This document shows positions 216 through 56,224 of a stretch of 64,000 bases of DNA, in pieces; position 1 is the first letter of the stretch; each line of letters opens with the position of its first letter. Source of the DNA: Antedon mediterranea (lineage: Eukaryota > Animalia > Echinodermata). The notes beneath the pieces are model-generated. The model saw only the letters and a list, made by a program, of their open reading frames with translations, did not search any database and was not told the origin of the DNA. Made by a program: the position numbers and the translations under genes. The stretch covers positions 28,641,648-28,705,647 of the forward strand of contig NC_092673.1 in assembly GCF_964355755.1 (NCBI RefSeq). Reading direction: 5' to 3'.

Positions 216-1183
216 TTAATAAATATTCAAAATTTACCTTTTTGGAATCTTTCGTCAGCTTTTATGCGATCATCATGTGTAATTTGTACACCATTCAAAA
301 TCTCCAAAGAACGTAACTGGAAGACTATATACTGATGATAGTGAGCCAGCTCACACAATGGGTTCTGTTCTATTGACAATTGAGTTAGGTCTCGCATTAC
401 ACGTAGATGACCTATATCATGCAGCTAAAATGAAAAACAATATTTATTTTATTTAGAGGATTACTGCAAAAACAAAGTATATATTTTCAGTTTACTGTAA
501 GATCATGAATATCTCAGGATGAGAAAATAGGGGGAGGATAATAATAAAGAGTGTGTCAACATTAGGATTGTAATCAGGGTTAAAACAGAAATGTATCTAA
601 ATAAAATCAATCTCATTATTCATCTCATATAAAAAATCAATACACATACCAACAATGAATAAAACAAATTGAAGTTGCAAAGGACCTCCCAGGAAACCCC
701 AACGGGGCTTGTGATAGAAGGCCCACTAAAAACTAGTTGCATTAAGACAATAAAATAAATAAATAAAAAAGCCTGTATCTAGTAATTGTATAATGTAGTA
801 CTGTATTATTTGCATACTTTCAATTCAAATTAGTGGTAATTTGTTTGTTTAATAATCTTGCTTTCACATATTATTAATGTTAATTCTACATACTAAACCA
901 ATCAATAAAAAATCAATGCTTAACACTTTCAAGGATTTTTTAAAAATGATATTTTCCTATCTATTATTTTTAGAATATTTAACAATATAATTGAAATAAA
1001 AAGGATGTCCAAAAACGAGATTGTAGAAAGTTTGGCCACCTAAAAACATTTTTAAAGATGTTAAAGTATACAAACATGACATGAATACTACATATAAAAA
1101 AGTAGTACATAATATCATTTTAGCTGTCAAGGGAGGAAGCGAGCACAGAATTAGAGTACAGTATATAGTGAAACCTGTCTTAC

Positions 1184-3124: not shown

Positions 3125-3356
3125 GTTAGCATCATGTTTTTTTTATCAATATCCTGTATGCACCTGTATTATTAATATTTAAATGAGTTACTTTGTTTAT
3201 CATTATTGTGCATCATAATAGTTGCCTGCCTATAAACCAAATTATACCTCAGTCTAAAAATCTGCATACTATTACTAAAAATGATATTGATGTGCATTTT
3301 TATATGTGATGTTGGAACTTTTATCTTTTCAGGTACATTTAAAAGCTCCGCGGATA

Positions 3357-4082
3357 ATGAAGAATGTGTTGAAGCTCTTGACGTTTGACGTCAACAATAC
3401 AATCATCAAAGTACGTCATTCCGTCGGTCATCATTACTCTAAAACCGCATCTGCATTTGGCGTTGAGGCAGATCCCGCAAAAGTTCAGTCGGCATTTTTA
3501 GAAGCCTACAGAGAACAGAAATCTACGCAACCAAATTATGGAGACGGGTTGGATACTACCACCGAAAGATGGTGGACAGATATCGTCAAAAAAACCTTTA
3601 TTTTACAAGGTCATTCAAATATAGAAACGCTTGAACAAATAGGAGCGAAACTGTACCAGGATTTTCTAGAACCTAGTTATTGGGATGTTTTTCCTGACGT
3701 TAAAAATGTGTTAAGTTATTTAAACAAACAAGGGATGTGCGTAGGTGTAATTTCAAATTTTGATGAGCGACTAATTCAAGTTTTAAAGAATCTAGAACTA
3801 GCGCATCATTTCTCGTTCATCATCCCTTCCATTTTTGCAAAATACCAGAAACCACAACCACAAATTTTTCAAAAGGCTTTAGATCTGATGAAGGTGGCGC
3901 CAAACGAATGCTTACATATTGGCGATAGTGTTAAAAATGATTATTACGCTGCGCAAGATATTGGGATGAATGCTCTTATTATAGACAGAGATGGTACGCT
4001 TCAAAGAAATCATCCAGATATTAATAGAATGCATTTTATAAACAATTTAGAAGATTTGAAACAATTTGTTGACTCATCATAA
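3357..4082 (+). CDS. HDHD3: HAD-like hydrolase domain-containing protein 3 (REG-2-like), single coding exon, 241 aa
   Basis: Acceptor tcttttcag at 3332, ATG at 3357. HAD motifs: LLTFDVNNT (I), VISNFDERL (II), KPQPQIF (III), HIGDSVKNDY (IV). The TTTERWWTDIV cap segment is typical of HDHD3/REG-2. AATAAA at about 4451 and 4820. Confidence 0.93.
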   Translation: MKNVLKLLTFDVNNTIIKVRHSVGHHYSKTASAFGVEADPAKVQSAFLEAYREQKSTQPNYGDGLDTTTERWWTDIVKKTFILQGHSNIETLEQIGAKLYQDFLEPSYWDVFPDVKNVLSYLNKQGMCVGVISNFDERLIQVLKNLELAHHFSFIIPSIFAKYQKPQPQIFQKALDLMKVAPNECLHIGDSVKNDYYAAQDIGMNALIIDRDGTLQRNHPDINRMHFINNLEDLKQFVDSS

Positions 4083-7664: not shown

Positions 7665-10600
7665 CTACTTTTTCAAAAGGCCACTGTAAGAAAAAAAAAA
7701 GATATTCATTAATAACACTAACAATAATTAATTCTAATTTTTAATATACAGAATTTATTGTGATACCATTGTCTGAATATTCAATATTTTTCATATTATT
7801 ATATGTTTTATAGAAAGAAGGCACTAAATGATCTTTTTCTACACAGATACTAGATACAGTAGGCCACCCTTAACGTTAATAAATTAATCAATACAAATTT
7901 GATTTCATTATGTTATGTACTGTATCTATATGCTAAATATGCTAATTTTTTCTGGCTGTTCTACTTGATCATTTGGATTGTTTTGTATATCCATTGAGAT
8001 CGAACCACTGATACCCACAGCATTTTTATTTTTTCAGTAATTTATATACATTATATAAATCCAAAGGCAAATTACTGAAAAATTATATATATTGTTTCAT
8101 TGACTGATTTCAAGATGGTGACATTTAAAAGCTTCAGCTAAGCAGGACATGCGCGCGAGCTGAAGCCAAAGTGTTTTCTTTAATACAACACTGGAGGCAG
8201 TGTATGGTAATAGTCTTATCTAATCCATTACATCTATTGATTCCTTTAAATTATGCATACAGCCATGGTCTGCTTTATTACTTAACAATGTTAAGACATT
8301 TTAAATATTCATGGTGCACTTATTTACACCTACCACTGCTTTACGTTACTTGCCTTTCAATAATTTAGCTTACAGAAAGTGCCTTTTTAAAATCTGTTTT
8401 TCTTTTAAATCAAATATTACACCTGAACTCTATAACTAACTGTTGTTTGGTTTTAATTTATTTTTTTTATTTCATACGCATCCAACTGAGCTGTCCTGCG
8501 TGTGTTCCTAGACACTTTTGGGCTAGCCTAAAATATCCAGCTGTCCTGCAAAGATTCCTGGACACTCTTAGGCTAGCCTAAAATATCCAGCTGTCCTGGA
8601 TATGTTCCTAGACATGTACCTAGACACTTTTAGGCTAGCCTAAAATATCCAGCAGTCCTGGATGTGTTCCTAGACACTCTTAGGCTAGCCTAAAATATCC
8701 AGCTGTCATGGATGTGTTCCTAGACACTCTTAGGCTAGCCTAAAATATCCAGCTGTCCTGGATGTGTTCCTAGACATGTACCTAGACACTTTTAGGCTAG
8801 CCTAAAATATCCAGCTGTCCTGCAGGTATTCCTGGTCATTTCTGGTTGTAATGAATAGAAAGTTTTGATAGAGAGTTGCCCGACTGAATACTTACCTAAC
8901 AAGCTCAATAGGCAACGGGAAGATGATCGTAGAGTTCTTCTCGGCGGAAATGTTGCTCAGTGTTTGCAGATAACGGAGCTGGAGAGCGGCGGGTGATTCC
9001 GCGATAACGTCAGCGGCTTCTTTCAATGCACGTGAAGCATTCTGTTCACCTTCAGCAGCAATGACCTAAATATAAATTATTTCGAACAAAATCAACATAC
9101 AGTATGTGTACAAACAATAAAGAATCATTTGGTCAAGGGACATACAGACTCAAATAAGTCCGTCACTGTCCTCCCTTTTTATATAATTTATTTCAAACAA
9201 AGAAGAAGAAATGTGCATTCCATTCCATTATAAAAGCAAAAAGTAAATATACAAAAAACAAAACTTTCAAAATGGTAGAAGAATAGTGGACTCATATATG
9301 ATTCGAACACCTGACAATAACATTAAAAGCATCTGTAAGATATTTTAATACTACAGTCAACTCTCCCAAAACTTTACTTTGGCTGTCTCTGTCTATACTA
9401 TCAAACTTAATGTGACAAAAAATGTGATGTGCCCATATATGAGGATGATGATGTCATATTACATTTGGGCACACTTTTAAAGGACAAACAATTTATCTCC
9501 ACTGAATGACCTTAGTTTTTCAACTACAAACATAGTAACCTACCTTAGCTCTTGCTTCTCTTGCAGCTTCGGCCTCGGCAGCCATGGCACGTTGTAACTG
9601 TACTGGCAGACGCACATCTTTGCTGTAAAATACAAATTTTTATCATATTTAAATCTTCAATACAGATTGGACTTTCATGTCTAGCTAAAGCCTTGTCTAC
9701 ACTATCAAAATGTGACAAAAAAAGTGTGATGTGTCCTAATATGGTAGTGATATGACAACATCATGCCCATATATGGGCACATCACATTTTTTTTTGTCAC
9801 ATAAAGTTTGATAGTGAAGACAGAGCTTTAGAATGAATTTATGTTTTCTATTCATTTATAATAGAAAGCAATGAAAAACTAAATCCAATAATGGTTATAA
9901 AAAGATGTTGATTTTATTTGGCCATTATAACAACACTTAAATTTCTGCTTAGTAGTTTTAGTTGACATGCTAAGCATACGCATTATGCATTGTCCATTAA
10001 AGCATATCGAGATACCTGAACATAGCCTTAAGGATTCAACAATTGATTATAGCTATATTGAAGACAACAGCATACATGTTGAGATACCTGTGTGAACGTA
10101 ACCTTAAGGGTTCAACAATTACAGCTATAGACAAGACAACATCTTACAGGTTGAGATACCTGTGTGAACGTAACCTAAGGATTCAACAATTAATTATAGC
10201 TAGAACAAGATGATCAGTGTCTGATTTCTCTAGTAAATATAAATTTCTCTTCCTGCATATAATTAAGCTTGTATGAATCAATTTCTACTACAATGCAAGA
10301 ATAAAACATTGTAAAGCTCTGTCTACACTATCAAACTAGTTGAAATATGGTACTGATATGTCCAAATATGGTAGTGATATGACATCAACATGTCCATATA
10401 TGGGCATATTACATTTTTTTGTCACATAAAGTTTGATAGTGTATACAGAGCTTATGCTATAACAATTTTTATTTTATATGTTAGATAAACATGTGCCTAT
10501 GTAAGACCATGGATAAACAAATAATTCTTTATATTTAAATTAATTTGTCCTCCATGTACAAACTGATGTTTGTTGCTATTATATATTTTAGGTCAAAATT

Positions 10601-13600
10601 AAGTAATTAAAGAAAAATAACAGAAACTAGTGATGCTTTCAGATTTCGTATGTTAATCATCTGTACATTACAATCTATTATTTTAGAATAAAATTATATT
10701 TTTAGAGTTGTCAAGTTTCATTATACTGCATCGTAATGACATTTGAAAAACGACAAAGATGACTTTTTACATCCTGCCAGTTTCAACTTCATAGCCATTA
10801 TTGCAATTGTTTCTTTTTGCCCTTATAGCAAAAAATTATTAAACAATGGTGCGTTAAATTAAATCCCAAAGCAAAACGTGCAAATGAATATCTTTTAAAT
10901 TTGCTGATAGATGTTTTTTTATGTTGATGTATAATCTGGACTAGGTCATTAACATCTGAAACTGATCTGAAATTGTGGTTAAAACATAAAAAAATAATAC
11001 AGTACGGTAGAATTACTTACATCTCAACACGTTCCACTTTGATACCCCATTGGTCAGTGGCTTCATCAAGAGATGACTAAAAAGAAGAAAACAAGACAAA
11101 TTTAAAGAAGAATATGCAGAAATAAAAAGTACATCAAAAACACTAACAGTAAGTATTTAGATGAGCAAGTCTGACACTCAGTGCTGTATCTCCACATATC
11201 ACAATAATAACATTAAACTCTACACTATCAATCTTTATGCGACAAAAAAATGTGATGTGACCATATATATGGACATGATGATGTCATATCACTACCATAT
11301 TTGGCCACATCACACTTTTTTTGTCAAACTAGTTTGATAGTGTAGACAGAGTTTATAGAGACAGTACCGAGAATGTGTGGGAGATATAAAATGTTACCCT
11401 CAGAAAACTTTAGAATCAAACACCAATTATTTCTATATTTTTTTAATTGGGAAATAAAACTCTCTACATTATTAATTGGGGAACATTTAAGCTCACTCGC
11501 ACTTGAATTCGAATATATGATTTTCAATTATTTAACAAAACATCTTCCTTTCATGAAATGAAAAAAGTGCAATGTGCTTAATTGAATGAAGGCGGTTAAA
11601 TTTACACCATTATACACTTTAAAGCTCTGTGTGCCCAAATATGGTGATGATATGCCTAAATACGGTAGTGGTAAGATATCATCATGTCCAATATTGGTAC
11701 ATCACATTTTTCCGGAGTTTGATAGTGTAGACAGAGCTTTAGAGGTTTGACAAGCAGTTATAAATTTATGGTGGATAATGTGAATTGACAAAATGGCGCC
11801 TTGATGACGTCATGGTTGATTGATCACCATCATAGCGAATGAAACTAAAGTTAGGTTTGTGCGTAAGTATAGACACAAGTGTTTCCCAAAAACATAAGCT
11901 CTGTCTAAACTATCAAACTTTATGTGAAAAAAAAAATGTGATGTGCCCATACTATATATGGACATGATGATGTCATATCACTACCATATTTAGGCATATC
12001 ACAGCTAGTTTGATAGTGTAGACAACGCTTTAGCAATTGCAAAGTATTAATAGTACTGTAACACAGTATAGGAACCACAGTGCTAAACCAAGTTCCATTA
12101 CGTGGTAAATTACATTTGACCAGGAATTGATTTTTACACGGAAACTAAACACCACAGACTCACAGTTAATCAATGCATCCAATATCCAGTCGAAACGAAA
12201 CCTTGTGTAAATATCTTACTTAGACTTGCATCGTCAGTCTGTGTGTACTGCGGCAGGGTAGATGTGAAAGTGTGTTGAAATTGATAATGAGTAAAATCGA
12301 TGAAGGAGAAGAAGGCGACGATGACGATGTTGATTTTGTTTACAACGATGACAAAAGATGTAATAGTTTACTTTCTTTATTGCGTCCGACAATTCAATCT
12401 AGCAACTACTTTCTAAATATAGTATAATAGCTAATGACAACTGTACTGTAGGCATAGTAAATGATATTTTAATTGTGATATGGAAATGATTGAAATTTCA
12501 TGATTGAAATACTGTAGTGTAATTAATATGTACAATCATTATGTATTAAATATTAAAGATATTGTCCACCCTAAAATATAATTTAAAAAAAAATATATTT
12601 TTGAATATGCCATTTTAATGTGTCACATGACAGCTATTTACTTTGATCAGAAACTGTGGATCGAAAAACAAATTATTTTCCTGAAAAAATGTAATTTAAG
12701 GCAAAAAATACCTAAATTGTTTGTCAGACAGTGGTTTTTGGTTAAAATTAACCGATTCGTTTGTCTCTTTATAAGTGAGAAGATGTATTGTTCCCTGAAA
12801 AAATAATTCTTAAAACATTTTTTGTTGAATATGGAATTTTAGTGTCACCTAATAGTTATCCACTTTGACCATTTTATAAGTGAAAACATTTATTTTTTCA
12901 ATTTTTTTTACTATGGAAGTGATTAACTTGATTAAAACTACAAATAATCTACTAAAAGTCTGATTTTATTAATCTTTATTTTTCATGTTTTTAGGGGACA
13001 ATACATCTTTAAGGTGTTATCAAGGATGAAAGAATAATGCTGTTTAATTTGACTTCAAATTTAGTTTTTCATTTTGTATCTTTTTAACCTAGATTCAGAA
13101 ACAGCCACATCATTATTCTTTTCATTGCATGTGGAAGAATAATATTATCATTATAATATTTCTTTATTATATAATAATTGTTTTTTGTTTGTGAGCAGGA
13201 AAGAATAAATCATCTTAATAAATGTATTATAATAAAAGAGTACTACTAGTAGGTATAATACTCATGCTAATGGAAATTGACAATGCATCTGTGTTTACTT
13301 GCCAGGCCTCCTGCTTTCAGCAACTAACAACATCGTAAGGTCAATGAATTAAATATTCCAATTTACATCGAGCGAAACATGATGAGACGCAAGACTGACA
13401 TCCCTCTATTATAATTTATTAATATTCGATCAGTAATACATAATGGGCTATGCAATCAAAACATGCAATTATGATTTTGCAGAAAGCAAATTAAATTTTA
13501 GCAATTATTATGCAATGGTTATAACACCAATAATTAACTATAATAACACAGATTTCTATTTATAAACCAGTAAATGGTTGTTTTCAAAGGCTGTGTTTCA

Positions 13601-16600
13601 AATAGACAAAGTTTATATTTATTAAACGGGTACACTTGAATGTAATAATTAATTTGGAATTATTTCAATGCATTTGAATTTTTCCACCCTTCCGTTCTTA
13701 TCTACCTTTTCTATATTATATTAAATTATTAGTTTGCTCGGACAATTAAAGCTTTGCTTACAATAAGTGATTTTAAGATTTTAATTATTATTTTATTAAT
13801 AATTATTGATTATTTGGGGTTGGTATTTGACAAGTTCTTTTACTTCTTTTTCAGATTGTAAATGTATGCTAGAACTGTTTCTAAATAAATGTTGAATGAA
13901 TTATAAGATTTCACTGTTTTTATTTTAAGAAATAAATTTATTTTTGAATTAAATATATGAATATAGGCCTACACTGTATGTCTTTTAATTTGTTATTTCA
14001 GAGCATGAAGAAAACCCTGTGCCGATCTAGTCTTCATTATCATCTTGTAATGAGAACAAACCAAGTATAAACTTTTACAATATATATACTTATAAAACTA
14101 AATGCAATTTAAATTTAATTTCAGATAACTTTGTTTCCATGTCATTAACCTTTGACTTTACTCAATATTGATCCAATTAACAAATATTTATTATTGTAAT
14201 TGTAATTCTGAATTGTAGATTGAGTATTTTGTTAATGCATAACTTAGTACGTCAACTACATCTGCGTAAAGTGCATTTTAATGGAAGATGTTTATTTCCG
14301 CTGTTTGACTTCTACCTAATTTATTGCATTTCAACAATCGTTCAGGGATCGCACATTTAATCAATTAATATTGGCAGATTGTTAATAATCTATCGATTTG
14401 ACATATTGTTAATAATAATCTACAATATGGATATGACAGATTGCCAATTATCTATGTATTATGACAGGTTGTAAAATAGTAGAATATAGCCAACTATCCT
14501 TAACTTAACAGGACTTAATGGAAACTCTTTCTCTTTCCATAAAATTAGTTTTTATTGATATTCTAATGTTATAAGCTTCCATTACTAATTCATAGAGTCG
14601 ATATACTCAACTTTATTTCTAAGCCAATGTAAACAATGCTTCCATCATAAGAAGTCATGTCATGTCATACATTGTGGACAGGTATGGAAATCCTTACCTG
14701 CATAAGTATGCTTACTTAGAACATGTTTTGAGTACCTACCATGTCATACATTGTGGACAGGTATGGGAAGCTTCACCTGCATACATGCTCATTTAGAACA
14801 TTTTTAAGTACCTAACACGTCATACGTTATGGACAGGTATTGAAAGCCTCACCTGCATAAACATGCTTACTTTGTGAATAGGTAAAGGATAAACTAACCT
14901 GCATAAATGTGCTAATGTTGTCCCGATCCGATAGTATCTCGGCCAAATTTTTTGTTCCCAGTACGTTCCTGAGTGTGGTCTGGGCCAGAAGTCTAGTAGA
15001 ACCATTAGCGTTTTCGACGTTTGCAATTGAGATTGTGGCGTTCTGTACACGATAATAGACAACGGCATCCACAGACACTGTCACACTGTCTCGCGTCAAA
15101 ATCTTTTGTTAAATAAAAATGAAAAGTTAATAATAAATACGCACAAACATTTTTAACTTTCGTTTATTTTGTTTCTTCTGCAGTAAGAACATTTCTTTAC
15201 TGGGGAAAGCATTTCTCATTTCAGTGCAGGGAGGATCAAGGAAGGTAGAACTAAGGGCTCACACTCCCCTTTTGACAGACTGTTAATATTATCCGTTTAC
15301 AAAACCCTGGAACCCTGCAGTGTGAAGCTTGTTTGTTTGTAACACTAATTTACCGTACAGTACTAAAAGTACTTTACTGTAAATCATGTATTCATTTTTG
15401 TCAATATGTTCAAATGGTATTCTCATCATTCACTCTTATTTCTAATAATCGTGGTTTATTGCTGTAACAAAAGTAAGATTTGTCTTTGTGTACTGAATTG
15501 ACTCAGTACCGTGTTTTGTTATACAGTACAAGGTCATATGACAGTTTATTCAGGCTAGTTTTTTGAATTGAAGTACTATAATAGGCCTTTTATTCTAAAG
15601 AATGAAAAAAGTCAACTTTCTTTTTCACTTTCTGTTGGAATAAAGGCATAATGGTACCCTATTTTGTTCATGGATGATATGCATTATTAAAGAAATATGG
15701 ACGAAAAGGTATATGGTACCCTATTTTGTTCATGTTCGATGTATTATTAAAGAATTATTACAAAAATATTATAAGCAAAAGTGAGGAGTGTTTAATTTTG
15801 TTAATTTGAAAATGTAAACATGCTAAATGTGGTCTACAACTTAATTTAATAGCAACAACTTCAAATACAAACAAAAACAAGAGCCTGATCAGTTATATAT
15901 ACAGTAAATATCGGGTTTGAACTGTACCATTAAAGCCTGGTCTAATGGTTAGGACATCTGCATATCAAGCAGATGGTCCGGGTTCAAATCTTGGTTGGGG
16001 CACCTTTTTTTTATTCTCATCTTATCATTTCATATTAATTAATTAAATTTCAGTATACGACCGGGTGGTTTAGAATTAATGTTCTATATCTGATGTGTTT
16101 ATATAATATATATCCATATATATTGGTCTTTATTGCAAAATTCATCATATAATAATGTAACGTAGCCTGAAGCCTAATACCATAATATTTACATAATTAA
16201 TAGGGCATCAAAAAAACATCAAAATAAGAAACCATACCGCTATTATTATAATGGATTTCAATAAAAAATATGGGATATAGGTTGGGTAAATACATTTTGG
16301 AATAAAAGTTGAAATAAAAACATAATGAGCGTATTATTATCCAAAAGTGATAGCACCCTGTGCAATATTGCAGTATTCTAATTTGAATACGTTTGAGCCA
16401 TTCTCATCAACAATGTATTATAATTGGAACCAACGGCTCTAGAGAAAAGGTTAGGTCATTCATTATTTTAAGTGCTTTGTTTGTAGAAAAGTTATTGTTT
16501 TGTTTACTCTACCTAACAACCATTTAAATCACAACGTCGTTTTACATCAGACAATTAATTAAAGGGTGGGTGGGATGCCTTTGCGATGGATATAATGTGT

Positions 16601-22600: not shown

Positions 22601-25600
22601 GAAGTTTGGACATTTATAACAACGTTCTCCTCCAGTTAAAGACCAGATACCTATAGAGATCTGAAATAGGAGGAGATAGAGGAGGGGGAGTAGGAGGAAG
22701 CGGCCCAATATAAATAACTTACTTCTTGGGGAGGAACATCAAATGATACAGTTCTCAGATCCACTTTGGTGTAATCCTCAATGCATGGTAGGATGAAGAA
22801 GATACCTCAAAATTAAAATAATAATATAGATATAAATTATTTTATTTAAAAAAAAAAAAAAAAAAAGCGGTTAAATTGAGGATGACAAAATACCAATATA
22901 AAAACAAATCAATGAAAATACAGTATTTACTGTAATGTATAATGTAATGCATATAATGTTATTGTTATATTAGAATAAAACAAATAATGTTTTTATATTC
23001 GTGCAATGGTACAAATAGTTTGGTGAAATATGAAATTATTTATATTTTACATCGTACTCATAAACATTCATTATTTTTACATACAAGTATAAAATATGAT
23101 TTTTATCACCATTGTATGCAAAATGCATGTATAGTGTTGTAACTTGTATCTGTTGTACTAAGTGGTTTATTTCAGAGACAACGTATAATGACTCAGGTTT
23201 TTTATACTGATAGGATTGATTGATCACACAAAATAAAACGAATAAAATAAAATATTCCGAAAAATTTATCTTCTGACAGAACTTTTATCACCGATAGCAG
23301 CATTCTAAAAGCTTACTATGGTTAATAATATGACTTGAGGATCGTTTGTATAACTACCATCATAAATATCATAAGATGTTCGAAGTGACCCTTTAGGCTT
23401 CTAAAACTCGCTGCTTTGCGGATATTAATACAATGTTAAAATCAACATGAATTTAATGAGTTCAAAATCTTTTTTCATAAATAATTCTTGACAAATTCTA
23501 TTTGAGATCATCAATGGAATATAACTATAATAACAATGTTAGTTCCTTTATTTGTGAAATAATAATTCTTAATCAAATTTTTGTTGAATAGTCCATTTTA
23601 ATGTAACATAATGGTTATCCACTTTGACCAAAAATTGGATCGAGAAAAAAAAATGTATTTACCTGAAAAAATGTAATTTAAAGCAAAAAATGGTCAAATT
23701 GGCTGCCAGCCATGGATTTTTGGTTGAATTTAACCATTTATTTTGTCATTATATAGTGAAAACATTATTTTTTTTTCGTTTTTTTTTTCTATGGAAGTGA
23801 TTAACTTTTATTAAAACTACAAAATAACATATTCAAACTCTGATATAATTAATCTTCATTTCATGTTTTTGGGGGACAATACATCTTTAACAAATAGTGA
23901 GAAACAAATTTTATTTCTTCCACACATTTTGAGAAAACCCTCCAGTAAACTAAACCAATTAAAAGGATTTAAATCCAACTTTAAAATGCGTACAATTTAT
24001 TTGATCCACTTTCGCGCTACAGTTAACATTTAAAGTGTTAAAAAATGTACTTCCTACGACATTAATGACATTCAATTTGATGCTGATCGCTTCAAGCGGC
24101 CATAACCTAAAATATATATTTAAATTTAATTTTCTCAATTCATTTGTATGCTTGATCCGACACAATCTCGCAAATCATTATGCCGTTGGGGAAAATCGGA
24201 TTTTGCTGAAAATGATTTATCAACCATTTGTAGCCGAGAATTACCATATGGACAATTTTAATAAATTTAGCAATGAGACGAAAGCAGCTTTTAAACTTTT
24301 GATAGCATACGACGGCGGCAATATGCGTTAGATAATTATATCCCATGTGAAATGAACATCAAACTACACGTTTACTACTCCACGGCGACGTTATCATTAA
24401 AAATGTAACATTACAAATGTTTTAACCATAAAAATCTCAATCAATTTAAAACTAGATTCATTGTCTGTTATTGTAATTTAAACCATTTTACCATGAAAAG
24501 TTCTCATTAAATATTCATCATCATCATAACACTTCGTTTGTAATTTGCCATTTCCTCATACTAAGCGTTATCCATCATTGTTGTACTTTATTATTTATAA
24601 GCAAGCTTACTAAACATAATGTGTGTGTACAGTATACCTAAGTAATTAGAAATAAAGGAAAAGAAAGTTGAGAATGTGGATAAGGACTGCAGAATAAGTC
24701 TTCTCAAATAAGGACTGTAGAACAAGTCTTCTCAAATAAGGACTGTAGAACAAGTCTTCTCAGATAAGGACTGTAGAACAAGTCTTCTCGGATAAGGACT
24801 GTAGAACAAGTCTTCTCGGATAAGGACTGTAGAACAAGTCTTCTCGGATAAGGACTGTAGAACAAGTCTTCTCGGATAAGGACTGTAGAACAAGTCTTCT
24901 CGGATAAGGACTGTAGAACAAGTCTTCTCGGATAAGGACTATAAACCGTAGGTCCATGTACACTTTTAGCTCATGTGCACTACTACATCTTTCGAGACGA
25001 TGAAGGGGTTACACTGGTGTGCTAGTACATCAGACAGCCACTGATCATAACTGGGCCCTTTGGGAGAGGTTGCCCATATAAATAAATAACAAATTTTGAT
25101 TATTACATACTACAAATGTCTTCGTGAGTAATACTCTAGGCAAGCAAAGTAGTTGTAGCGATCAAATAGACTATCAGGGTGTTAAATCTAAGTCTATTTT
25201 ACTCCTCCCTATACAATAGTATACGAATAATATATGTTTATGAGTTGAATAGTGAAAATAACTGCTCTATTTTTAACAAGGTGGAGCTGAGTTGAAAACA
25301 GTCGTTTTTTCATGTGTTATGAATTAAAACATGGAATATCTTTATCCTAAAATATGCAAATTTTATTTATGGAAATAAGAGGGATGAATTAAAAGCAGCC
25401 ATGTTATTATTTTTACACACACATAACTGAAATGTGTTTATTAATGGTAAACCTTAACTACATATGAATAACTTGAATGTAAAAGCATGTATTATGTAAT
25501 ACTTACCAGGCCCTTTGGCGCCCCCTGGGAGAAGACGACCAAGTCGAAATATGACAGCACGTTCATACTCTTGCACAACCTATACAAAAAAATAAATAAA

Positions 25601-26436
25601 AATTGTTCACTCACAATATGAGAGTATTTGTTACATTGTACAAGCAATAAAGGCATTTAAAAATGCTCATTCTTTCATTGTACAGTATTGTTATATCTAT
25701 ATTTTATATTTTGCTAAATATAAAAAATACATGCGACATCCCATAATTTGTTTTTATGTTTTGTATTAATTTAAAATGAAGTACAAGTATTAGTCAAAAA
25801 TAAATCATTAGAAAACCTAATTATAAACTCAATTTTGAAAAGAAATTAAATAAATGAGATTAAAATGTATTTGCTTGACACCAATGGAACTGCAATTTAT
25901 AGTATTAGTAAACTCGCAAGTCTGAAATCCTAGCATTTCTGACTTACAGTATTATATTGTTTTGTACAATATATTAATAACGTAAGCTTTGTATTTAAAC
26001 ATATTTTTGATTGATTGAATGCCAAATTGTGAAATATTGATCTTGTATCTACTAAAACATCACCTAATAAATTATCTTGAAATTTCAATAGAGTATCACT
26101 ATCAATAAATAAATATTTTGAAAGATCATACTTTCCAAGATATTAATTATAGTTACTAAATAATAATATAATAACCAAATACAATTCTAACATATCTAAC
26201 ACAAATTCTATACTATCTATATTAATTTTCAACAAATTACCCAGTGGAAAATTTCAACAAACTGATCTGGAAATTCATTTAAAACAAAACTTTAAATTTA
26301 TTCCAATCTCGATGTTAAAATTATCTTACCTTGATACAAACACAGAGTGAGAATGGTAGGGTACAGATGACCATCAGCCAGGCCAGAGCGGTCAAAATCC
26401 AGCCACAGATTCCAACACCTCCTTCAGGGGTGCCAG
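7665..26436 (-). CDS. STOM: Stomatin (band 7/SPFH) constant coding exons: 26436-26330, 25579-25507, 22805-22723, 15102-14899, 11076-11021, 9622-9544, 9065-8896, 7683-7665
   Basis: All exons are GT-AG and phase-compatible. The spliced protein is (A)[106 protein letters not shown]...[137 protein letters not shown]. It has the hydrophobic hairpin with conserved Cys and Pro, the SPFH domain, the coiled coil and the oligomerisation motif. It could be co-orthologous to STOM/STOML3/mec-2. Confidence 0.95.
8489..8840. repeat. Minisatellite, about 50-bp unit x about 7
   Basis: Unit CCAGCTGTCCTGGATGTGTTCCTAGACACTCTTAGGCTAGCCTAAAATAT; two units carry an extra ACATGTACCTAG; it ends about 55 bp from the stomatin donor at 8895. 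Confidence 0.95.
10009..10215. repeat. Degenerate tandem repeat, about 72 bp x 3
   Basis: GAGATACCTG..AAC.TA.CCTTAAGG.TTCAACAATT..AGCTA..AAGAC recurs three times. Confidence 0.85.
12557..13008. mobile_element. Non-autonomous DNA transposon, Kolobok-like (TTAA target, AG...CT ends); related copies at about 23560-23886, 52171-52494 and a fragment at about 44630-44745
   Basis: TTAA|AGATATTGTCC...GGGGACAATACATCT|TTAA; the copies share an internal body (GGAAGTGATTAAC, CCACTTTGACC, TTAAAACTACAAA). Confidence 0.75.
14660..14915 (-). repeat. About 78-bp tandem repeat containing copies of the stomatin exon end and donor
   Basis: ATGCAG|gt recurs at 14899 (true donor), 14853, 14777 and 14698. Confidence 0.85.
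15910..16050 (+). repeat. Dispersed repeat carrying a tRNA-like module (copy 2)
   Basis: TGGTCTAATGGTTAGGAC ATCTGC-ATATCAA-GCAGAT GGTCCGGGTTCAAATCTTGGTTGGGGCA then a T-run; the 5' acceptor strand is partly deleted. Confidence 0.7.
16674..16814. mobile_element. Palindromic MITE family A (about 140-160 bp, PIF/Harbinger Tourist-like), representative copy; about 24 copies or fragments in the window
   Basis: TIR AGCTCTGTCTACACTATCAAACT...AGTTTGATAGTGTAGACAGAGCT, TWA flanks, internal ATATGGTAGTGATATG repeats. Copies at about 6370, 9385, 9690, 10315, 11215, 11622, 11897, 16674, 17149, 21878, 30836, 35999, 36902, 37245, 38496, 39015, 40935, 42567, 43078, 43728, 44817, 58882, 62462, 63493. Confidence 0.9.
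18351..19237. mobile_element. Young non-autonomous PIF/Harbinger-like element, 887 bp
   Basis: Perfect TIR of about 38 bp (CGCCCGTATTCTTAAACCGGACTTTAGTCGTAGTTCGA), exact TAA target duplication, subterminal TTTAGTCG/GTTCGA repeats, CpG-rich relative to the flanks; no transposase ORF. Confidence 0.9.
21138..21769 (-). mobile_element. Helentron-associated non-autonomous element (HINE/DINE-1-like)
   Basis: The minus strand reads TTATTTACCTCCGCAAAGGAGGTATG (5' subTIR + inverted repeat), (GTTT)n microsatellite, then GGCGAAGGTAT (3' subTIR), GTACTCTCGGAGTGC stem-loop and CTAGTT end. Confidence 0.8.
22431..22494. repeat. 16-bp tandem repeat x 4
   Basis: GATTAGGGACCATGTC x4. Confidence 0.95.
24678..24940. 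repeat. 28-bp minisatellite x about 9.4, fused to a SINE-like body (24940-25065)
   Basis: Unit GGATAAGGACTGTAGAACAAGTCTTCTC; the last unit runs into GATAAGGACTATAAACCGTAGGTCC...; the downstream body is related (inverted) to 4180-4265 and to fragments at about 40190-40295 and 43575-43690. Confidence 0.9.
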
Positions 26437-26883
26437 CTGTCAAAAAAAAAAAAGATTTTTTTTTTATTTTGAAAGTTAGTTACCATTATTAAAACCTTTT
26501 GAAATTCGCATGTTGCAATACACGCATGAGAGACACGCCCTCTAAAAAAAGGGGAACGCATAAAATGTTAAGCATAAAACGGTTTAAATCAATTTCTGTA
26601 TTTTTTAAATATCGTCATTGTAAACAACAGTACAGAGTAACACTATATTGTGTTGACCTTTTTTCTGATTGATAATCGCATAACTCCTGAAATTTGATAC
26701 CATAGAAAAAGCTTCCTACAAATAACTATGAAAAGAATGAATCAAGGTCAGTTGACAGACACATGACAACAACAATAACATTGAATTGCTTCCCTTCAAT
26801 AAACCCAATATTCCTGCATTGAAAGTGCAGTCACCTATCGCTAAACTATTTTTAATGGTTGGATAGGATATACCAGCTTATAC

Positions 26884-26950
26884 CTCCAATAATGCCTGTT
26901 GCGTCGGCATGCATGCTGCCTCGTTTTTGGTCAAAATCTTTATCCGCCAT
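26884..26950 (-). CDS. STOM: Stomatin alternative first coding exon A (MADKDFDQKRGSMHADATGIIG-)
   Basis: ATG in aaaATGG context, 67 nt, phase 1, donor GAG|gtataa; joins exon 26436 in frame (285-aa product). Strong TATATAAAAG on the minus strand at 27168-27159. Confidence 0.85.
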
Positions 26951-27694
26951 TTGAAAATCTTGCATTGCCTCAACGAAACACTCTTCACGTCAGGTACCGT
27001 AATTACTAAATGCTTATAATACTAGTGTATTATCATAGTCACATGTTTGGCCAACACTTATCAGCCTTATGATCTACATACCAAACATGTTTACACTGAC
27101 CCTAAAGGCAGCACGTTTGAACTATGACCTTTAACACACGGTTTGTTTACCTCCCCTCCTTTTATATACATCACAATTGGTCGCATAGTAAATGTATTTT
27201 GTACTACCACTGAACACGCCCCCACAAACATAACACAGATTGTAAATATATTTAACAACCTGGCAAATAATTACCATTATTTATTTAGTTTAACAATTCT
27301 ATGTTTACACAACATATTGTGAAGGGCTGTTGAATTTATATGATGTGAAATGTTATTGGTCCACTTTAAAATGGAAATTTGTTTGCTTGGCATAATTAAG
27401 ACAATAAAACAAAGAAAAATACATCAAATTCCAAAAGGCAATGTTAAAATACTATTTATATGCATATGGTAAAGTACTGTTAAAAAACTAGTGCATAAAG
27501 GTCTGCTATACTCTTCTATTATCACAAAATTAGAAGATTTTTCTACAGTCATGAAAGCACTAACAATACATAAGAAATGGTGGCTACCATAGGGTACACT
27601 GTTCAAAGACACTATACCCATTTCAATGGCAACTATCAACAATGCTTAAACAACAACCTCCACACTTAAAGTTAAACTTATTTCATTTTCTTAC

Positions 27695-27740
27695 CCCCAA
27701 TAATTCCAGTATGGTCGACCTTCAAGTTATTGCTCTCCAT
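27695..27740 (-). CDS. STOM: Stomatin alternative first coding exon B (MESNNLKVDHTGIIG-)
   Basis: aaaATGG, 46 nt, phase 1, donor GGG|gtaaga; TATTTAAA at about 27892-27885 and TCAGT initiator-like sequence at about 27870. Confidence 0.85.
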
Positions 27741-30700
27741 TTTAAGGGCACACGCTACTTCTCGCACGTAAAATTGACAACGTTCCCACACGGCGTATAA
27801 TTAATCGAAATAAGTAATAACTCTCTGAAAGCCAATTGCATTTAATTTCCCAACAATGGAAACTCACTGAGCTGTGCAGCATCATTTAAATAAAGGACAC
27901 CATTAGGGACTGTTAGGAAACCATGCATTTTAATTCTGGATAAATGCCAACCAGTAATATTATAATGCTGGTGGTACAACAGTAGTTGGGAAATACAAAT
28001 ATTAATTATAATGGCACAATTATATCTAGAATTAATTGTATGTTTTGATCAATATAAGAATATGTTTACTATATCGTTGCTACAGCATTGTTTCAGTTTC
28101 AGTTTATTTTCCATTTCAATTTCTGAACATAAGATAAACAACTTATATGGATGGATAACCGTAAGAGCGAAGCTCGTTTGCCGGTCACCCGTTAGTGCAG
28201 TGACATTACAGACAACATAAAGACAAAGGTGCAATACATAACAAGACATGTGAACACTTGTGTTTGCAACCCCTTGGATAAAATAATATATTTATATAAA
28301 GGAGAAAATTAGATATTATATTTCTTTTTGACCATACAATGATAATTTTTTCTTAAGAAGGCTAACATGAAGATTACATATACTGTAGTTATTTTTATTT
28401 TTACTAGTACATGGTAATAAAATCTGAATATCATCTTTTAGATAAAAAAATGTAATAAATTTACATACACACACATGTATTGTTTAAGTTGTTACTATGT
28501 ACAGTATTGATGATGTCATCGCATCACATGAAGATGAACGGAAAAATACAGGTCATCGTAAACAAAGACTAGTATACATCCTGGAATAAATCTGTACAAC
28601 CTTACTCATATCATATGACATTTAAAAAAAATCAATATTTTCGAAAAAAAATCATATTTATATTTAAACTACAACTACGGGTAATATTACTATTTTTTAA
28701 ACAAGATTACTTTGGTATGGCTCAGTGTTTCTAATTAAAAAGGTTAAAAAATAGAAATATGGTACATAGTAAACCAGTTTTAATACAGTTTAGAACCTTT
28801 ACAAAATATTAAAGTATTGATGGATTTAAAACTACAGTAAGTCAATGAAGATATTCTTGTTTAAAAGGTTAAAATACAGTATTTATTTGACTTTTAAAGC
28901 ATAAAGCATTATTATATCAAAGAACCTTTCTTAATTAATTTTAAAGAATGAACCAAGACATAAAAAAAAAGATTTCCAGGTAAAACATTAACAAGAAAAA
29001 ACAGAAAGGGCGTCCAAAAACAAATTAATTAAAAAAGACTATGATTGACTAGATTTGGTTGAAAAGTACCAAAATGTGATTTAAACGTTTTTTTATTCAG
29101 TTAAAAAGCAAGCTGTAATCGTGATGTTGCATGCAAATTATTGTAACTAGGCAACAGTAGAGATGCTTGGCGATAGCTTTGAAGAATTGGATTAAAAGCA
29201 TAACATCAGAAATAATGATTACCAACTACAATACAATTTATGGAAAATAATAAAAGAAAAATTGTATTATTATTATTATTAATTATACTTTAATTGTAGC
29301 CTATTGTTATTTGAATGTCATTATATTGTGATCTGATAATTGTAATTGTGTTGGCTCTCTGACAAAATATGATTATTAATATTTTAACTGTTAGAAACTT
29401 ATGACTAGATTTAGACTTGCCCGAAGTCTGTATTGTCTTTTTTATTTATTTGTTTTTATTGCGACCGTGATTTTTGTCTGAAAATACAGACTTGTGAAAC
29501 GCGTATAGAAATCGATTTGTAGACCGCAAACATCCGATAAGAATGACGTAGGTTATCATACCGTATTTGGCTATATGGGGCGGGCGGTATGTAAATATGG
29601 ATTTCGAATCAACCAATGATCATTTTGTTTCAAAATGAAAAAGATCGAGTACGTACAGTGCTGAATGTACGGTCGAGACTGTTGAAATATAAAATCGTGT
29701 TGCCAAGTTGTTTTGTTTATTAATTGTTTAGTCCTTAGCCTAGGCCTCCTTCGTAGGTCCTACTCAACTCGCACGTATGACCTGCACACCACCACCGGCA
29801 CACAACAAAGCAACACCACTACACAGAACAGGACAGGGTCTGGGTGGGAATTAAATCAAATTATCTCCGCGTAATAAATGATCCATTCAATGTTAGATTT
29901 GTGGAGAAGCTAACCTATCATATCCAGACGAGTTTTCATGTTCTTGGGAAAAATCCCATCAAATGTTTACCAGACTACTAGGCATATAAAATCATTTCTA
30001 GCCTTCAGAAACTTTCATCAATGTACCCAAGTACACATTGTCTAAACGTAACATAGCGCATGCGCACCATCTTAGTTGTTGAGTCTTTGAAATTCTGAAA
30101 TATGAATATTAAAGTGGTGAGTAGCCAATCGCATGCAGCTGAAACTAGTCAACCGGATAATCGTATGCACCAAGAATTCTTGGTGTCAAACCACGTGACT
30201 TGTGCGTGTTTCCCCAGACGGAGTATCCAAAATCAAGTAGTATACGTATGAAACGCCATATGTGCCAAAATATTTATCTTTTTACTAATAATAATATTAA
30301 GACAAAACTCCGTCTGGAACCCAGACTAGACAAGATTTAATAGCATTCAGCTTTTATTTCTTATGAAATAATTTGAACCCGTTATTAATTCGGCAAACAC
30401 AAATAGAAAACATTAAGATTAAGAGACAATAAATATTCTTGATTGCACCAAGGCTTCTAATCGACAATTATGTATGTAAATAATATATTTTATCATTATC
30501 ATTATTATTATAAACACATTATATATTCTGCATTTAGTATTGATTGAACAATTTGTTTATTAATACAAAGTGGTACATATTCACAGAAATATTATCTATC
30601 TTTGATATTAACATAACATCTTTTTTTTTCAATCTTTTCAATTCAATTTATTTATCATCAATGCAATAATCACAAAATTAAATCCTGTTTGTAGTTAATG

Positions 30701-31240
30701 ATATTATCTTTCACTAGTAAATCTAATTGGTTAAAAGTAAACTAATTAAACTAATTTAAGAAAAGGTCAAGATGTAATTCAGGAATTCTATTTATCCTAC
30801 TTGGTGGAAATAGGAAAGCTTGTCAAAGAATCCTTAAGTTCTGTCTACACTATGAACATTGTGACAAAAAAATGTGATGTGCCCATATATGGTCATATCA
30901 CTACCATATTTAGAGTATATCACTACCATATTTGGCCACATCACACTTTTTTGCCAAAATAGTTTGATAGTGTAGACAGCGCCTTATTTTGCTATCTAGT
31001 TCGTTCTGACAACCCCACCTTAGCAGGAGGTTGTGACTGCTTTAGATCTTCAAAATATGTTTCCACTTTGCTGATTTTTGATTGTTATTGATTGATTGAT
31101 TGAATTTTTTAACCAAAGTCACACATATACATACGATAAACATTTAAATCAAAACAATCAGTACAGTAATAGTAAAACTCGAGTTAAATGGATATAAAAA
31201 AAATTTAAACTTTAGGCCTATGTGTAAATGATATTTGTTA

Positions 31241-31641
31241 AGGCCCATTCACACTAGGACGATAACGATCGACGATAATAGACAATAATTTGCATTTTTC
31301 ATACATAAAATAAAAGAAATATAAAACCTTTTCATTCTAGAACTATAGAATAACCATCTATGCTTCCTTTGATGAAAATTATATTTTCACACGTCCAATT
31401 AAATGACGTCATGATTAGTAAAGAGCAATAATATCGTGACAATACAACGATTTTATTGTTTTTATGTATCATGACGTCATTTGATTGGAATTTTAAAAAT
31501 ATTATTTTTATCAAAGACAGCATAAATGATTATCCTATAGTCCTAGAACGAAACCCTTTCTAATTTCTTTTGTTTTATGTTAAAAAAATGCATGCTTATA
31601 TATTTATCGTCGATTGTTATCGTCCTAGTGTGAATGGGCCT
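31241..31641. mobile_element. Fold-back MITE (about 400 bp), Harbinger-like ends
   Basis: TTA|AGGCCCATTCACACTAGGACGATAAC...GTTATCGTCCTAGTGTGAATGGGCCT|TAA; imperfect inverted symmetry across almost the whole element. Confidence 0.9.
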
Positions 31642-32280
31642 TAACTTGCCAATATTGACAGCAACTATGTTGTTTACAGAACATGACTACATTTATAGTT
31701 TATTACTTTTCATGATCCATTAATTCCTCTTGACTCATTGGTTTGCCGTTATTGATTACTATTTATTACTATTGACTACTTCCATCAAAGTAATATGAAA
31801 TCTTGGCCATCTAGTGAATTATTAAATTACTTTCACGGTATGCGTACGACTGTGTCAACATTATGTAAAGCCATTAATATACAATGTACACACTATAATT
31901 GCATATTCTCTTAACTATAGTCTTGCCAATACTTCAGTATCATAAACTTTAACTGTAGTGTATTTTTTAATTTAGAGATGATATATATGTACCTGATATT
32001 TTTTTCTCACAATTTAGATTCACCCGATACTAAAATTTGGAGGGAAAACTAAGAATATTTTTACTTTTTGATATGTTCTCCCCTCGAAGGGGAAAAGGCC
32101 TAGATGTCGGTTTATCTTTTATTTATCAATTTATTATTATTATTACAAAACAGAGTTCAAGAAATAAAGTAATAGTGTTCTTTTATTTATCAATTTATCA
32201 GTTTATCCAGGTAAGCTATTCACGTAATAGACACTAAAATTAAAGATAGCTGAATTAAAATCAAGTGACACAATGTTTAC

Positions 32281-32374
32281 CTCCAATAACTTCAGCCCGA
32301 TCATCATTTCCGTTGGCTTTTGTATTTTCCATCTCGATCAGTTGTGAATTGTCAGGTATGACCCTATTTGACAT
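32281..32374 (-). CDS. STOM: Stomatin alternative first coding exon C (MSNRVIPDNSQLIEMENTKANGNDDRAEVIG-)
   Basis: ATG at 32374, 94 nt, phase 1, donor GAG|gtaaac; the 3' end is homologous to exon D. Confidence 0.82.
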
Positions 32375-33422
32375 TTATGGTGCAAGCAAGCAATTTCAAA
32401 AAGATTCAGTTTGCAATAATACACCAGGTAATTTCTAGACTCCAATGCTTTTCCTCATGGCAACAATTATAAATGTTCTGAATAGGCTTTTGTTATGTAG
32501 GAGGTCGTCGTTATTGAATAAGTAATCAGATCAATAGAGGGCAGTCAACCATTACCACATTTTCTTGTACTTAATTATGATAATGAGAAAGCTACTTGGG
32601 TACAAACTACAAACAATGCTGTGTGACATTTTAGATTTTTTTAAGTAACAATAAGTCAAATTGAAAACTTGAAAGTTTAAAAATACGCTTTTGGTCTGGG
32701 TAAACCCAAAAAATGGGTTGGGCAACCGCACCAGCACCACAACACCCGCTACCTCGTTAAATCCGTTTCGTTATGAATATGAATGAAGAGTTATTTTTTT
32801 ATAAATAATATTTTAAGTAAAAGTTATTTGTCTGAAAATAACTTAACCGTTAAAAAAAAACGTTAAGGCAGCACGTGTTAAATAGTGTTAAAGCCTGCAA
32901 AACTTTCTTAAAAACAACATGGTGAATAAAACAAACTGATTGTATGTTAGGAAATGAAAGCACATCCATACGATTTGACTACATTACTTTGTCAAACGAG
33001 TTGATGTTAAATTTTGCATAGTGTGTGAAAATGTTTAATATAATTAATCGACCAATCAGGACTTGGCTGAAACCGCTGTACTCGCATCTGAAAATAGGAA
33101 CGGTTATACTGGTGGTCTAGACCTTGGTGGTCTAGTTGTATAAAAAGAAAAAAAATGGTTTAATCAATTCTTAATTTTAAAAGTCTTACATAGTTGTCGG
33201 TCTATATTGGAAATAAAATAATAGTTAGAATAGGGTATTCCAGGCCTAGCCCGATGATACCTCACTCAAATTGTGAAAGTACAATAACCTCACAGTGACA
33301 GCCAGCAAAACAACCAGGATGCATCATGCAGCTGGGGAGGAGAGAGAGTATGGATTGTCAGCCTCGGCCTAGGCTAGCTAGAGCGACACTTCCAAAAGCT
33401 TGGTGTATTAATTAATACATAC

Positions 33423-33501
33423 CTCCAATAATATCTGCTCGGTCGTCGTTTACCGTTTTTTGCATTTTTTCAGAAACTGTAGGATCTATTCTTGTTGGCA
33501 T
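33423..33501 (-). CDS. STOM: Stomatin alternative first coding exon D (MPTRIDPTVSEKMQKTVNDDRADIIG-)
   Basis: ATG at 33501, 79 nt, phase 1, donor GAG|gtatgt; the upstream region lacks a TATA box and has TCTCGCGAAA at 33569. Confidence 0.85.
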
Positions 33502-54133: not shown

Positions 54134-55477
54134 GGTAGGCCTACTTGAAAATTGGTTACGTTATATTACGACAATGATTGCTGCACCAGTTTCAGTACTA
54201 CAGGAACTATAAAAATAAAAACGGAATAACAATTGCCAGTTTCACAAAGTACACTGTTCCTTAACAAGTGAAAGGTTCTTGTCTAAAACTTTCCCTAAAA
54301 AATAATAGCTCATATATCTGTGTTAATGGGAAATTTGCTTTCTTCGTGTTTAAAGTGTGTAACATAAATACTTAGCATTTAACACTCTTATAACAATTCG
54401 TTAACATTTTTGTGAAAAGTTCTTCTGTGAAACTTTCCCTAAAAAATCTATTGTTCATTCTATATTATGTCAATGGGGATTTTACTTTTTGTGATTCAAG
54501 TTTGTAACTTTATAATTGAAACTCTTATAACGAAGTTAATGCCAGTACTTAGAAAACGATTGTGTTTTAAGTAAACACATTTACAAGTATTGTTACATAA
54601 CAATTGATTGACAACGTATCAATCATTAATGTTGATTTTTCTTTTACACATTAATACATGATTCTGACATTCTGGGGTTAACTGTCAATCAACAAATACG
54701 TGTTGTTATCAACATTTTTGTTGTTCAGTTTTTGTTGGGTTGACATGGTTGTCATTTATACTATCGCCATGATTGGTGTACAATAGTGGAGGAGTATTGG
54801 TTAATAGAAGGAGGGATTTGTTCGAGGGGGAGGAGCTTAACAATGCAATGAGACGCTGGGCGGAGCTATTGAATTTAGTAATTAGAAGCGTAATAGAAGT
54901 ATAAGGAGTTAAGTTATACAATATATTAATATAATAATAATTATGTTCATAACCAATAGTAAAACGTGAGCTAGTTTTATATAAATATAATAATACGATC
55001 AAGCAAGCATGAAAATAGTTTCGATAAAACAAATAATTGTTTAAATCAAAATAATGTATATACAAATGTAAATAAGAATAAGAAGAATAAGTTACAGAAG
55101 TGAAAACAAAATAGGAAACATTGATAAAGACTTTTACGTCATGAAATGATTTGAGACAATAAGAGCAAGATAATGTGCTATTCTTCGGTCTTTTGTGGTC
55201 ATTCATAATAAAATATAATTGTTCAATAATAATAATCCTTTGACTTTCCTTTTGAAACTAAAATTCTGAAAGAAATAATTTATGAAAAAACATCATATAA
55301 TTGTTTCTGTGTTAAGGGTTATATCATGAAGAATTAATAGTTTATCAAGCACACGACCACCGCTATGGCCCAGTGAGCACATTAACTGTGTATCTTGGGA
55401 ACCATTACGATTCAATGCATAATTTATATACGAGTATTTATTTCTAACGCTGTGTTAATTTTTCATTCTCTTTACAG

Positions 55478-56224
55478 CTACAAAGGGAGATAAAACACCT
55501 CGAGTATAAACTGAGGCAGAGGAACGATCAAGTGGAAGATTTAACAAAACGGCTTGAAATGCAATCGAGCAAAACAAAACAGCTGATTGCAGGCTGGAAG
55601 CTGCAACTTCAAGACAAAGAGAACACTTTAGAAAAACAACTGCAAGAAAAAGACACACAGTTGAATCATATCTGCGCTGAACTTATCCACTTTGAAGCAA
55701 CATTGAAACGAGAAAGAAGTTGTATTGTTAATCAACTGAATGAAAGAGATAGGAAAATAAAAGAACAAAACAGAAGAATAAAAGAACAGGAGAGAGAAAT
55801 AAAAGCTTTGAACTCGGCAAATGAACGGTTGCTCGAAAGTTTACACGAATCTAGAATATCTTCTTCTCCACCGTCTTCGCCAGCATCGCCGTCATCTCTA
55901 TCATCATCACCACCAGTAATGTCTCCGACCTCTCCAGCAGCAATGTTTTCGACCTCTCCAGCAATGTTTTCGACCTCTCCAGTCAAATCTCCGACCTCTC
56001 CACCAGGAGTCTTACTGAACAATAACGATGTCTTTCCAACAAAATACACACACATACGTCACACCGGACGTTCGAGCTCACCACGGACAGTACGATTTAG
56101 TGAAGATGTGCTAGATAATGAGGAAAAGAAAGTAACTCCAAAGCCTGCTATAAGAGTTCGCAAGATCTCTCTACCTGCTTATCGACTACCAGAAAATGAG
56201 GAAGACATTGTTAGGTACTGCTAA
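55478..56224 (+). CDS. Terminal exon of an unidentified coiled-coil protein with a Ser/Pro-rich tail
   Basis: Strong acceptor tttttcattctctttacag at 55477; 248-codon open frame LQREIKHLEYKLRQ...KDTQLNHICAELIHFEATLKRERSCIV...NERLLESL (coiled coil), then SSPPSSPASP/SPAMFST repeats, RTVRF, RKIS, ending EEDIVRYC*. AATAAA at about 56826, 57087, 57322 and 57347. Family not recognised. Confidence 0.85.
   Translation, partial: LQREIKHLEYKLRQRNDQVEDLTKRLEMQSSKTKQLIAGWKLQLQDKENTLEKQLQEKDTQLNHICAELIHFEATLKRERSCIVNQLNERDRKIKEQNRRIKEQEREIKALNSANERLLESLHESRISSSPPSSPASPSSLSSSPPVMSPTSPAAMFSTSPAMFSTSPVKSPTSPPGVLLNNNDVFPTKYTHIRHTGRSSSPRTVRFSEDVLDNEEKKVTPKPAIRVRKISLPAYRLPENEEDIVRYC

Follow-up and report, generated by a model that had tools for sequence, protein, structure and literature searches.

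A crinoid stomatin gene with four alternative first exons that are probably related by duplication

The 64,000-nucleotide window of Antedon mediterranea DNA analysed here (NCBI RefSeq assembly GCF_964355755.1, contig NC_092673.1, positions 28,641,648 to 28,705,647; coordinates below count from its first letter) contains a stomatin gene on the minus strand, which is probably one crinoid gene with four related first exons, A to D, on eight constant exons, the short N-termini serving as plectin-style tags. We are highly confident that A to D are alternative 5'-terminal exons. An earlier note, made from the sequence alone, had described four minus-strand ATG exons with their peptides and a common end, and these were borne out: A, B, C and D each have an ATG start, a length of 3n+1 and the end ATTGG(A/G)G followed by GT, which is a phase-1 GT donor. 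Its view of them as variable first exons on one constant region was confirmed, as all four spliced forms (first exon plus eight constant exons) are letter-identical to RefSeq XP_071948117-120, with isoform X1 corresponding to C, X2 to A, X3 to D and X4 to B. For exon A the proposed tail, frame and donor stood and the start needs one correction: RefSeq X2 begins at the in-frame ATG at 26965, five codons before 26950. All introns joining the constant exons are GT..AG. The parts of the gene are listed below, where run X1 is a sequencing run described later.

26884..26965, minus strand: exon A, first coding exon, ATG at 26965 or 26950, tail DATGIIG; RefSeq isoform X2
27695..27740, minus strand: exon B, first coding exon, 15 codons plus 1 base, tail DHTGIIG; RefSeq isoform X4
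27741..28134, minus strand: likely 5' untranslated region upstream of B, 394 unspliced bases in one contig with B in run X1, depth 99
32281..32374, minus strand: exon C, first coding exon, 31 codons plus 1 base, tail DRAEVIG; RefSeq isoform X1
32375..32788, minus strand: likely 5' untranslated region upstream of C, 414 unspliced bases in one contig with C in run X1
33423..33501, minus strand: exon D, first coding exon, 26 codons plus 1 base, apparent duplicate of C; RefSeq isoform X3
26330..26436, minus strand: constant exon 2, remainder of the N-terminal loop and membrane hairpin
25507..25579, minus strand: constant exon 3, match to RefSeq isoforms; exon 2-3 joint in run X1
22723..22805, minus strand: constant exon 4, match to RefSeq isoforms
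14899..15102, minus strand: constant exon 5, SPFH core
11021..11076, minus strand: constant exon 6, match to RefSeq isoforms
9544..9622, minus strand: constant exon 7, match to RefSeq isoforms
8896..9065, minus strand: constant exon 8, match to RefSeq isoforms
7665..7683, minus strand: constant exon 9, coding part including the stop codon, match to RefSeq isoforms

AATAAA hexamers follow the stop codon at 6244, 6165, 5671, 5223 and 4907. One constant exon matched an Antedon mediterranea RefSeq protein at 100%, and the cluster of this protein has six members, the Antedon isoforms X1-X4 and the Anneissia japonica isoforms X1-X2. The four-first-exon layout is thus already in public annotation, and RefSeq isoform models are usually built on transcript alignments. 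The gene product is a stomatin (SPFH/Band 7 subfamily): the Pfam domain Band_7 (PF01145) covers residues 67-239 with an E value of 4.4e-39, phmmer against the human stomatin structure 9oh9 yields an E value of 1.6e-128, and the best Foldseek matches are human stomatin (E 7e-35, 74% identity). The AlphaFold monomer used has a predicted local distance difference test (pLDDT) score of 87.2 and is good for the core only; an earlier model (56.6) was unusable. Human stomatin (PDB 9OH9, 9WKZ, 9Z7U) shows 74-76% identity across the aligned core, and the hairpin cysteine and proline as well as the docking residues R62, R70 and D183 are conserved in the Antedon protein, whereas IIG is missing from the human N-terminal loop where the two align. 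Human stomatin forms a 16-mer ring with a cytoplasmic N-terminus (PMC13724742; this and the other papers are cited from parts of their text).

All four first exons end in the tail D-x-x-x-[IV]-I-G, so the shared tails seen earlier are present and wider than first noted. Between 26470 and 34800 there are 61 phase-1 ATG..GT candidates, and such a tail is found only in A, B, C and D. Exons with [IV]IG, GT[AG] and an upstream in-frame Met number four in this interval, while among 1000 Markov-1 simulations of it 977 contained none, 23 contained one and 0 contained more, for a motif picked post hoc with the data already known. A tblastn search within the 64-kb window revealed neither a fifth first exon nor a second copy of the constant exons. 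Over the last 10 codons, C and D have seven identical residues, five of them through synonymous change, and three replacement differences; A and B have six identical residues, three through synonymous change. The last 31 bases have 16-23 positions in common among the four exons. The exon DNA score is 36 for C/D against a shuffle maximum of 23, and 20 for A/B against 17. In the flanks (500 bases upstream and 300 downstream), all six pairs match no better than shuffles. The synonymous changes in the tails, next to diverged flanks, uphold the proposal that the tails are under selection.

Likeness ahead of the tail was scored as z with the first Met and the final [IV]IG removed from the N-termini. 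C and D remain alike without the tail (z = 4.6-5.0), B resembles Anneissia X2 (z = 4.8-5.5) and C resembles an Asterias N-terminus (z = 4.5-5.8). Two results weigh against a common origin of all four: the likeness of A and B beyond IIG is weak (z about 2), and that of A/B to C/D is nil (z from -1.9 to 1.0). Anneissia has one isoform of the A/B class and one of the C/D class; therefore the split between the classes predates the two crinoid genera. The extra sea-urchin N-termini form their own group, with z of 3.9-7.7 for four linked pairs, and are unlike crinoid A/B. Because they group among themselves, separate duplication rounds in each lineage are suggested. Old duplication with selection on the tail appears well supported for C/D and plausible for the others. 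Overall, we regard it as likely, with good though not the highest confidence, that the first exons arose by tandem duplication, the case being strong for C/D and moderate for A/B, while nothing but tail and phase connects the two pairs. The serial duplication of exon 1 in the earlier note thus stands clearly for C/D, less firmly for A/B, and between the pairs only as far as tail and phase reach.

Multiple short N-termini are widespread in invertebrate stomatins, including those of sea cucumber, sea urchin, scallop and snail. Ten RefSeq isoform sets, chosen for multiple isoforms, were tallied by comparison of proteins, not gene structures, with some isoforms of the sets unretrieved. All ten have 2-8 different N-termini on identical downstream sequence, with the following numbers per set.

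Echinoderms: Antedon 4, Anneissia 2, Apostichopus 3, Diadema antillarum 5 (pooled from two near-identical loci)
Molluscs: Argopecten 8, Pecten 6, Pomacea 5, Biomphalaria 4, Physella 4, Haliotis cracherodii 4

The end IIG is found in 5/5 Diadema N-termini and in two of the three from Apostichopus, all eight from Argopecten end in [VF]R, and the snail N-termini have no common tail. The scallops have six to eight N-termini per gene, all with [VF]R before the constant part, probably a larger and independent set of duplicated first exons. A search with the sea-cucumber N-terminus recovered two proteins from six candidates. The multi-isoform stomatin genes are likely orthologous; in a tree of 36 constant regions, the echinoderm grouping has a support of only 0.49. 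Apostichopus and Pomacea have in addition an optional cassette of about 25 residues between first exon and constant region, a counterpart of which was not found in the Antedon window. The amphioxus stomatin isoforms share one N-terminus but differ in the exon-2 region, whose two versions look like duplicated, mutually exclusive internal exons.

The layout had been thought unusual for a stomatin, a view that does not survive: it is already annotated, all ten sets are similar, the C. elegans stomatin gene mec-2 gives rise to variants that begin with different first exons (PMC12284166), and alternative first exons produced by duplication have been catalogued as a class, with 39 N-terminal cases among 236 in human (PMC8373072). 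As architecture, the Antedon gene is an ordinary example of this class and illustrates that such arrays recur in echinoderm and mollusc stomatins. A literature search with most subscription journals outside its scope returned nothing on this stomatin first-exon array, on a stomatin RVxP motif or on a conserved tail at the stomatin loop-docking position; the parts of PMC12084653, PMC8934639 and PMC12588285 at hand hold nothing on stomatin first exons, and 'stom' is absent from the main text of PMC8373072, to which this statement is confined.

Exon C is of a recognizable type, in which N[RK][VI]xP close to the N-terminus is followed first by a second Met (residue 12-18) and then by the IG tail. 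In exon C itself RVxP begins at residue 4 and the second Met lies at 32332; exon D carries the variant RIxP at residue 4 and an in-frame second Met at 33465. The second Met is at residue 12-18 in 18 of 19 hand-picked C-type N-termini. The motif N[RK][VI]xP is found in 29 of the 141 distinct N-termini (0.16 in shuffles); as the 141 are related, the shuffle test overstates significance and the figure shows conservation rather than independent gain. The motif spreads over echinoderms, hemichordates, amphioxus, the brachiopod Lingula, the nemertean Tubulanus, a scorpion and snails, and in six of the ten isoform sets only part of the N-termini have it. In isoform C, RVIP (residues 4-7) fits (K/R/Q)VxP near a cytoplasmic terminus, a ciliary signal of polycystin-2 (PC2) and others, the RVxP of PC2 being N-terminal (PMC3172256, PMC13428341). 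In mouse, STOM and STOML3 are found in olfactory cilia, and STOM requires STOML3 to arrive there (PMC9259621). Exon C thus seems to be an old exon type carrying an RVxP like known ciliary-targeting signals.

That this RVxP would send the isoform, and rings containing it, to cilia is a doubtful though specific proposal, and several observations speak against it. RVxP is absent from four of the ten isoform sets, including Anneissia and Diadema; only 1 of 56 usable 50%-cluster representatives (of 142) has N[RK][VI]xP, which is no enrichment; VxP motifs are sometimes inert (PMC3930517); and under two patterns the window has 0 full matches to the RFX X-box. There are only two GTTGCCAT half-sites in the window, beside B (27633) and C (32464), with 2.1 expected by chance. 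A YY1-like motif at 34182 is at chance level. An acidic dileucine signal in exon C was also considered and rejected: the strict form [DE]xxxL[LI] is found in only 2 of 30 motif-bearing N-termini, and the relaxed form (9/30) rides on the conserved Met. A slightly more tentative proposal is that an old RVxP first exon was repeatedly duplicated into signal-less copies keeping the docking tail, and that the promoter chosen would decide whether the 16-mer scaffold goes to cilia or to other membranes; use of the conserved second Met as start might add to this switch. If true, a single gene would fulfil the role that STOM and STOML3 share in mouse olfactory neurons.

The conserved tail appears to lie at the loop-docking position of stomatin. 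In the human double-cup form, residues 14-28 of the loop extend to the interface of SPFH1 and SPFH2, where R62 and R70 hold the backbone, F19 sits in a hydrophobic pocket and R14 pairs with D183 (PMC13724742). In the alignment human C30 corresponds to C42 of isoform C, and the tail R26-G31 falls on human residues 14-19 with R14 equivalent to R26. Of the alignment columns before the start of the hairpin region, those of I30 and G31 are the most conserved (I in 44/76 rows, G in 52/76). Docking of the tail is opposed by three points. F19 of the human protein aligns with G31 and misses I30 by one residue, without sequence likeness; the loop is ordered in only one of the two human assemblies, the double-cup (PMC13724742); and in the AlphaFold model residues 1-40 have a pLDDT of 47-60, with 16-28 below 50 and the tail not docked in the monomer. 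We give even chances to the proposal that the D-x3-[IV]IG tail is kept because it is able to dock between SPFH1 and SPFH2, so that every copy must supply it.

For the gene as a whole, we propose that repeated duplication of exon 1 likely yielded four related first exons, that alternative promoters likely choose among them and that, as in plectin, they likely serve as address labels for a single scaffold. Plectin (PLEC) has short variable first coding exons, separately spliced to a common exon 2, which set cellular localisation of isoforms differing only in short N-termini (PMC3695321). It is unlike the Antedon gene in that it belongs to another protein family, the Antedon exons share a duplication-type tail, and a localisation role in Antedon is putative. 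Whether the free 8-24 residues ahead of the tail tune localisation or partner binding is evenly balanced in our judgement. With a distinctly lower but still appreciable probability, the exons would serve transcriptional control only, with one promoter per tissue or stage, a structural tail and nearly neutral filler ahead of it. In A, B and D the part before the tail is short and little conserved from class to class, the snail sets have unrelated N-termini, some of fewer than 10 residues, and the human N-terminal loop is mostly disordered (PMC13724742), all of which would agree with filler; however, N[RK][VI]xP and the second Met are kept across phyla, unlike filler. Control alone could account for A, B and D even with a signal in C.

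Use of the first exons was approached through reads. Five runs contain the 3' part of the gene, of which one (run X1) was guessed to be RNA; the joint of constant exons 2 and 3 is present in run X1 and in 0/2 DNA runs. Two contigs of run X1, 27695-28134 (depth 99) and 32281-32788 (depth 69), stop exactly at the donors of B and C, and both carry 29 extra letters past the donor. With graph words of 31 letters, 29 letters are expected if B and C join the same downstream exon, whereas 20-21 letters are expected on C if A or D joined too. Because the 29-letter overhangs fit a shared downstream exon, use of B and C is inferred. Exon A appears in run X1 only within an unspliced contig, 26658-27376 (depth 16), and exon D has no cover there, which does not imply silence as contigs cannot show absence. 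That B and C are in use is therefore supported indirectly, by one probable RNA run. On the other side, no joint of a first exon to exon 2 is among the joints listed from the reads and the 29-letter overhangs are known by length only; X1 is a single run of guessed RNA status with an intronic background depth of 4-16; and contigs cannot show transcript starts.

On these reads, only B and C might be used, with A and D as decaying duplicates or rare products retained by the annotation pipeline: D is without cover, A lies in an unspliced low-depth contig, and the overhang on C fits no junctions of A or D. This we consider improbable, as contigs lose rare variants and one sample was covered, ATG, frame, donor and tail are all intact in A and D, the C/D tail has five synonymous against three replacement changes, and each of A and D has a separate RefSeq isoform. 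The reading of four alternative first exons is therefore preferred.

The contigs of B and C continue unspliced for 394 and 414 bases on the 5' side of the ATG, consistent with separate promoters. The upstream contig of B ends beside a repeat, and the upstream end of that of C is without unaligned letters. There are nine ATGs in 27741-28134 upstream of B and four in 32375-32788 upstream of C; either the main starts are nearer to exons B and C, or upstream frames damp translation. In clustered protocadherins a conserved promoter element precedes each variable exon. Here no promoter element common to the first exons was found, 0/6 pairs of 500-base upstream regions exceeding the shuffle maximum (a very short site could escape), and so there is no sign of a stochastic choice or an identity code. 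The promoter linkage of the first exons in the earlier note was overstated, and the cell-type-specific use and mixed oligomers that it suggested are hypothetical.

Less probable still than use of B and C alone is convergence, by which unrelated exons were recruited and IIG evolved in each because the protein needs it. A/B and C/D have no similarity beyond [IV]IG, their flanks have none either, and the snail exons lack a common tail, as convergence would predict. It is countered by the D-x3-[IV]IG tail, the phase and the 16-23 of the last 31 bases common to all four exons; duplication is also more economical for the five Diadema and two Apostichopus N-termini ending in IIG and the eight scallop N-termini ending in [VF]R. 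An Amphiura N-terminus with an A-like start (z = 3.0) and a C-like tail offers a weak hint of a bridge between the pairs. An assembly artefact, in which four tandem whole-gene copies collapsed to one constant region, hardly deserves credit and is largely refuted: whole-gene stomatin duplicates are known in sea urchins and Mya, but DNA run X2, which may be the assembly's own sample, has an even depth of 43-49 over exons 2-3 and A (one unbranched contig across exons 3, 2 and A), B, and C with D (one contig), and therefore no sign of collapsed copies, and Anneissia has the same two-class layout.

Among the systems to which the gene had been likened, plectin is the right model, whereas the likeness to UGT1A and protocadherins overreached. 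UGT1A, GCNT2, the clustered protocadherins (PMC1885805) and chelicerate sDscam (PMC4835542) place tandem paralogous variable first exons before constant exons, with lineage-specific exon birth and death. In these systems, however, the variable exon is a whole specificity domain in about a dozen copies or more, whereas Antedon has four copies whose variable part is 15-31 residues, a low-confidence coil in the model and no full specificity domain. Substitutions derived from tandem exon duplication are alike in that duplicated 5' coding exons with alternative promoters give homologous N-termini, but the catalogue is a human set (PMC8373072), whereas the Antedon case is invertebrate and recurs by lineage. 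The C. elegans stomatin gene mec-2 yields many isoforms, among them Q, M, K, H and D from other first exons; its shown function depends on the C-terminus, and its first exons are not described as paralogous in the parts of the two papers cited (PMC12284166, PMC8934639). The locus bears on how stomatins reach given membranes and select the channels to cage, and on the N-terminal loop, of which least is understood in the new ring structures. It provides four natural N-termini with the core held constant, and two testable elements are marked: the conserved tail at the loop-docking position and the cross-phylum RVxP motif.

Head-to-head with the stomatin gene, about 1.3 kb from exon D, a coiled-coil gene on the plus strand starts at 34839 with exons to at least 43526. 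It has no Pfam or PDB match, and its first coding exon appears to resemble ODF2/cenexin, a basal-body protein. Exon D may share a bidirectional promoter with it. The other neighbours have Pfam-type domain matches.

1154-1534, minus strand: LRR gene
3291-4082, plus strand: HAD hydrolase
55448-56224, plus strand: gene with a DAB2P_C domain

These may be like centriolin, HDHD3 and DAB2IP, genes that lie near STOM on human 9q32-34, which would indicate an old linkage. Tandem repeats with units of about 28 and 40-50 bases are found in introns (24700-24940, 8500-8830), and a hairpin-type short repeat is abundant throughout the window in many copies, for example at 30830-30990.

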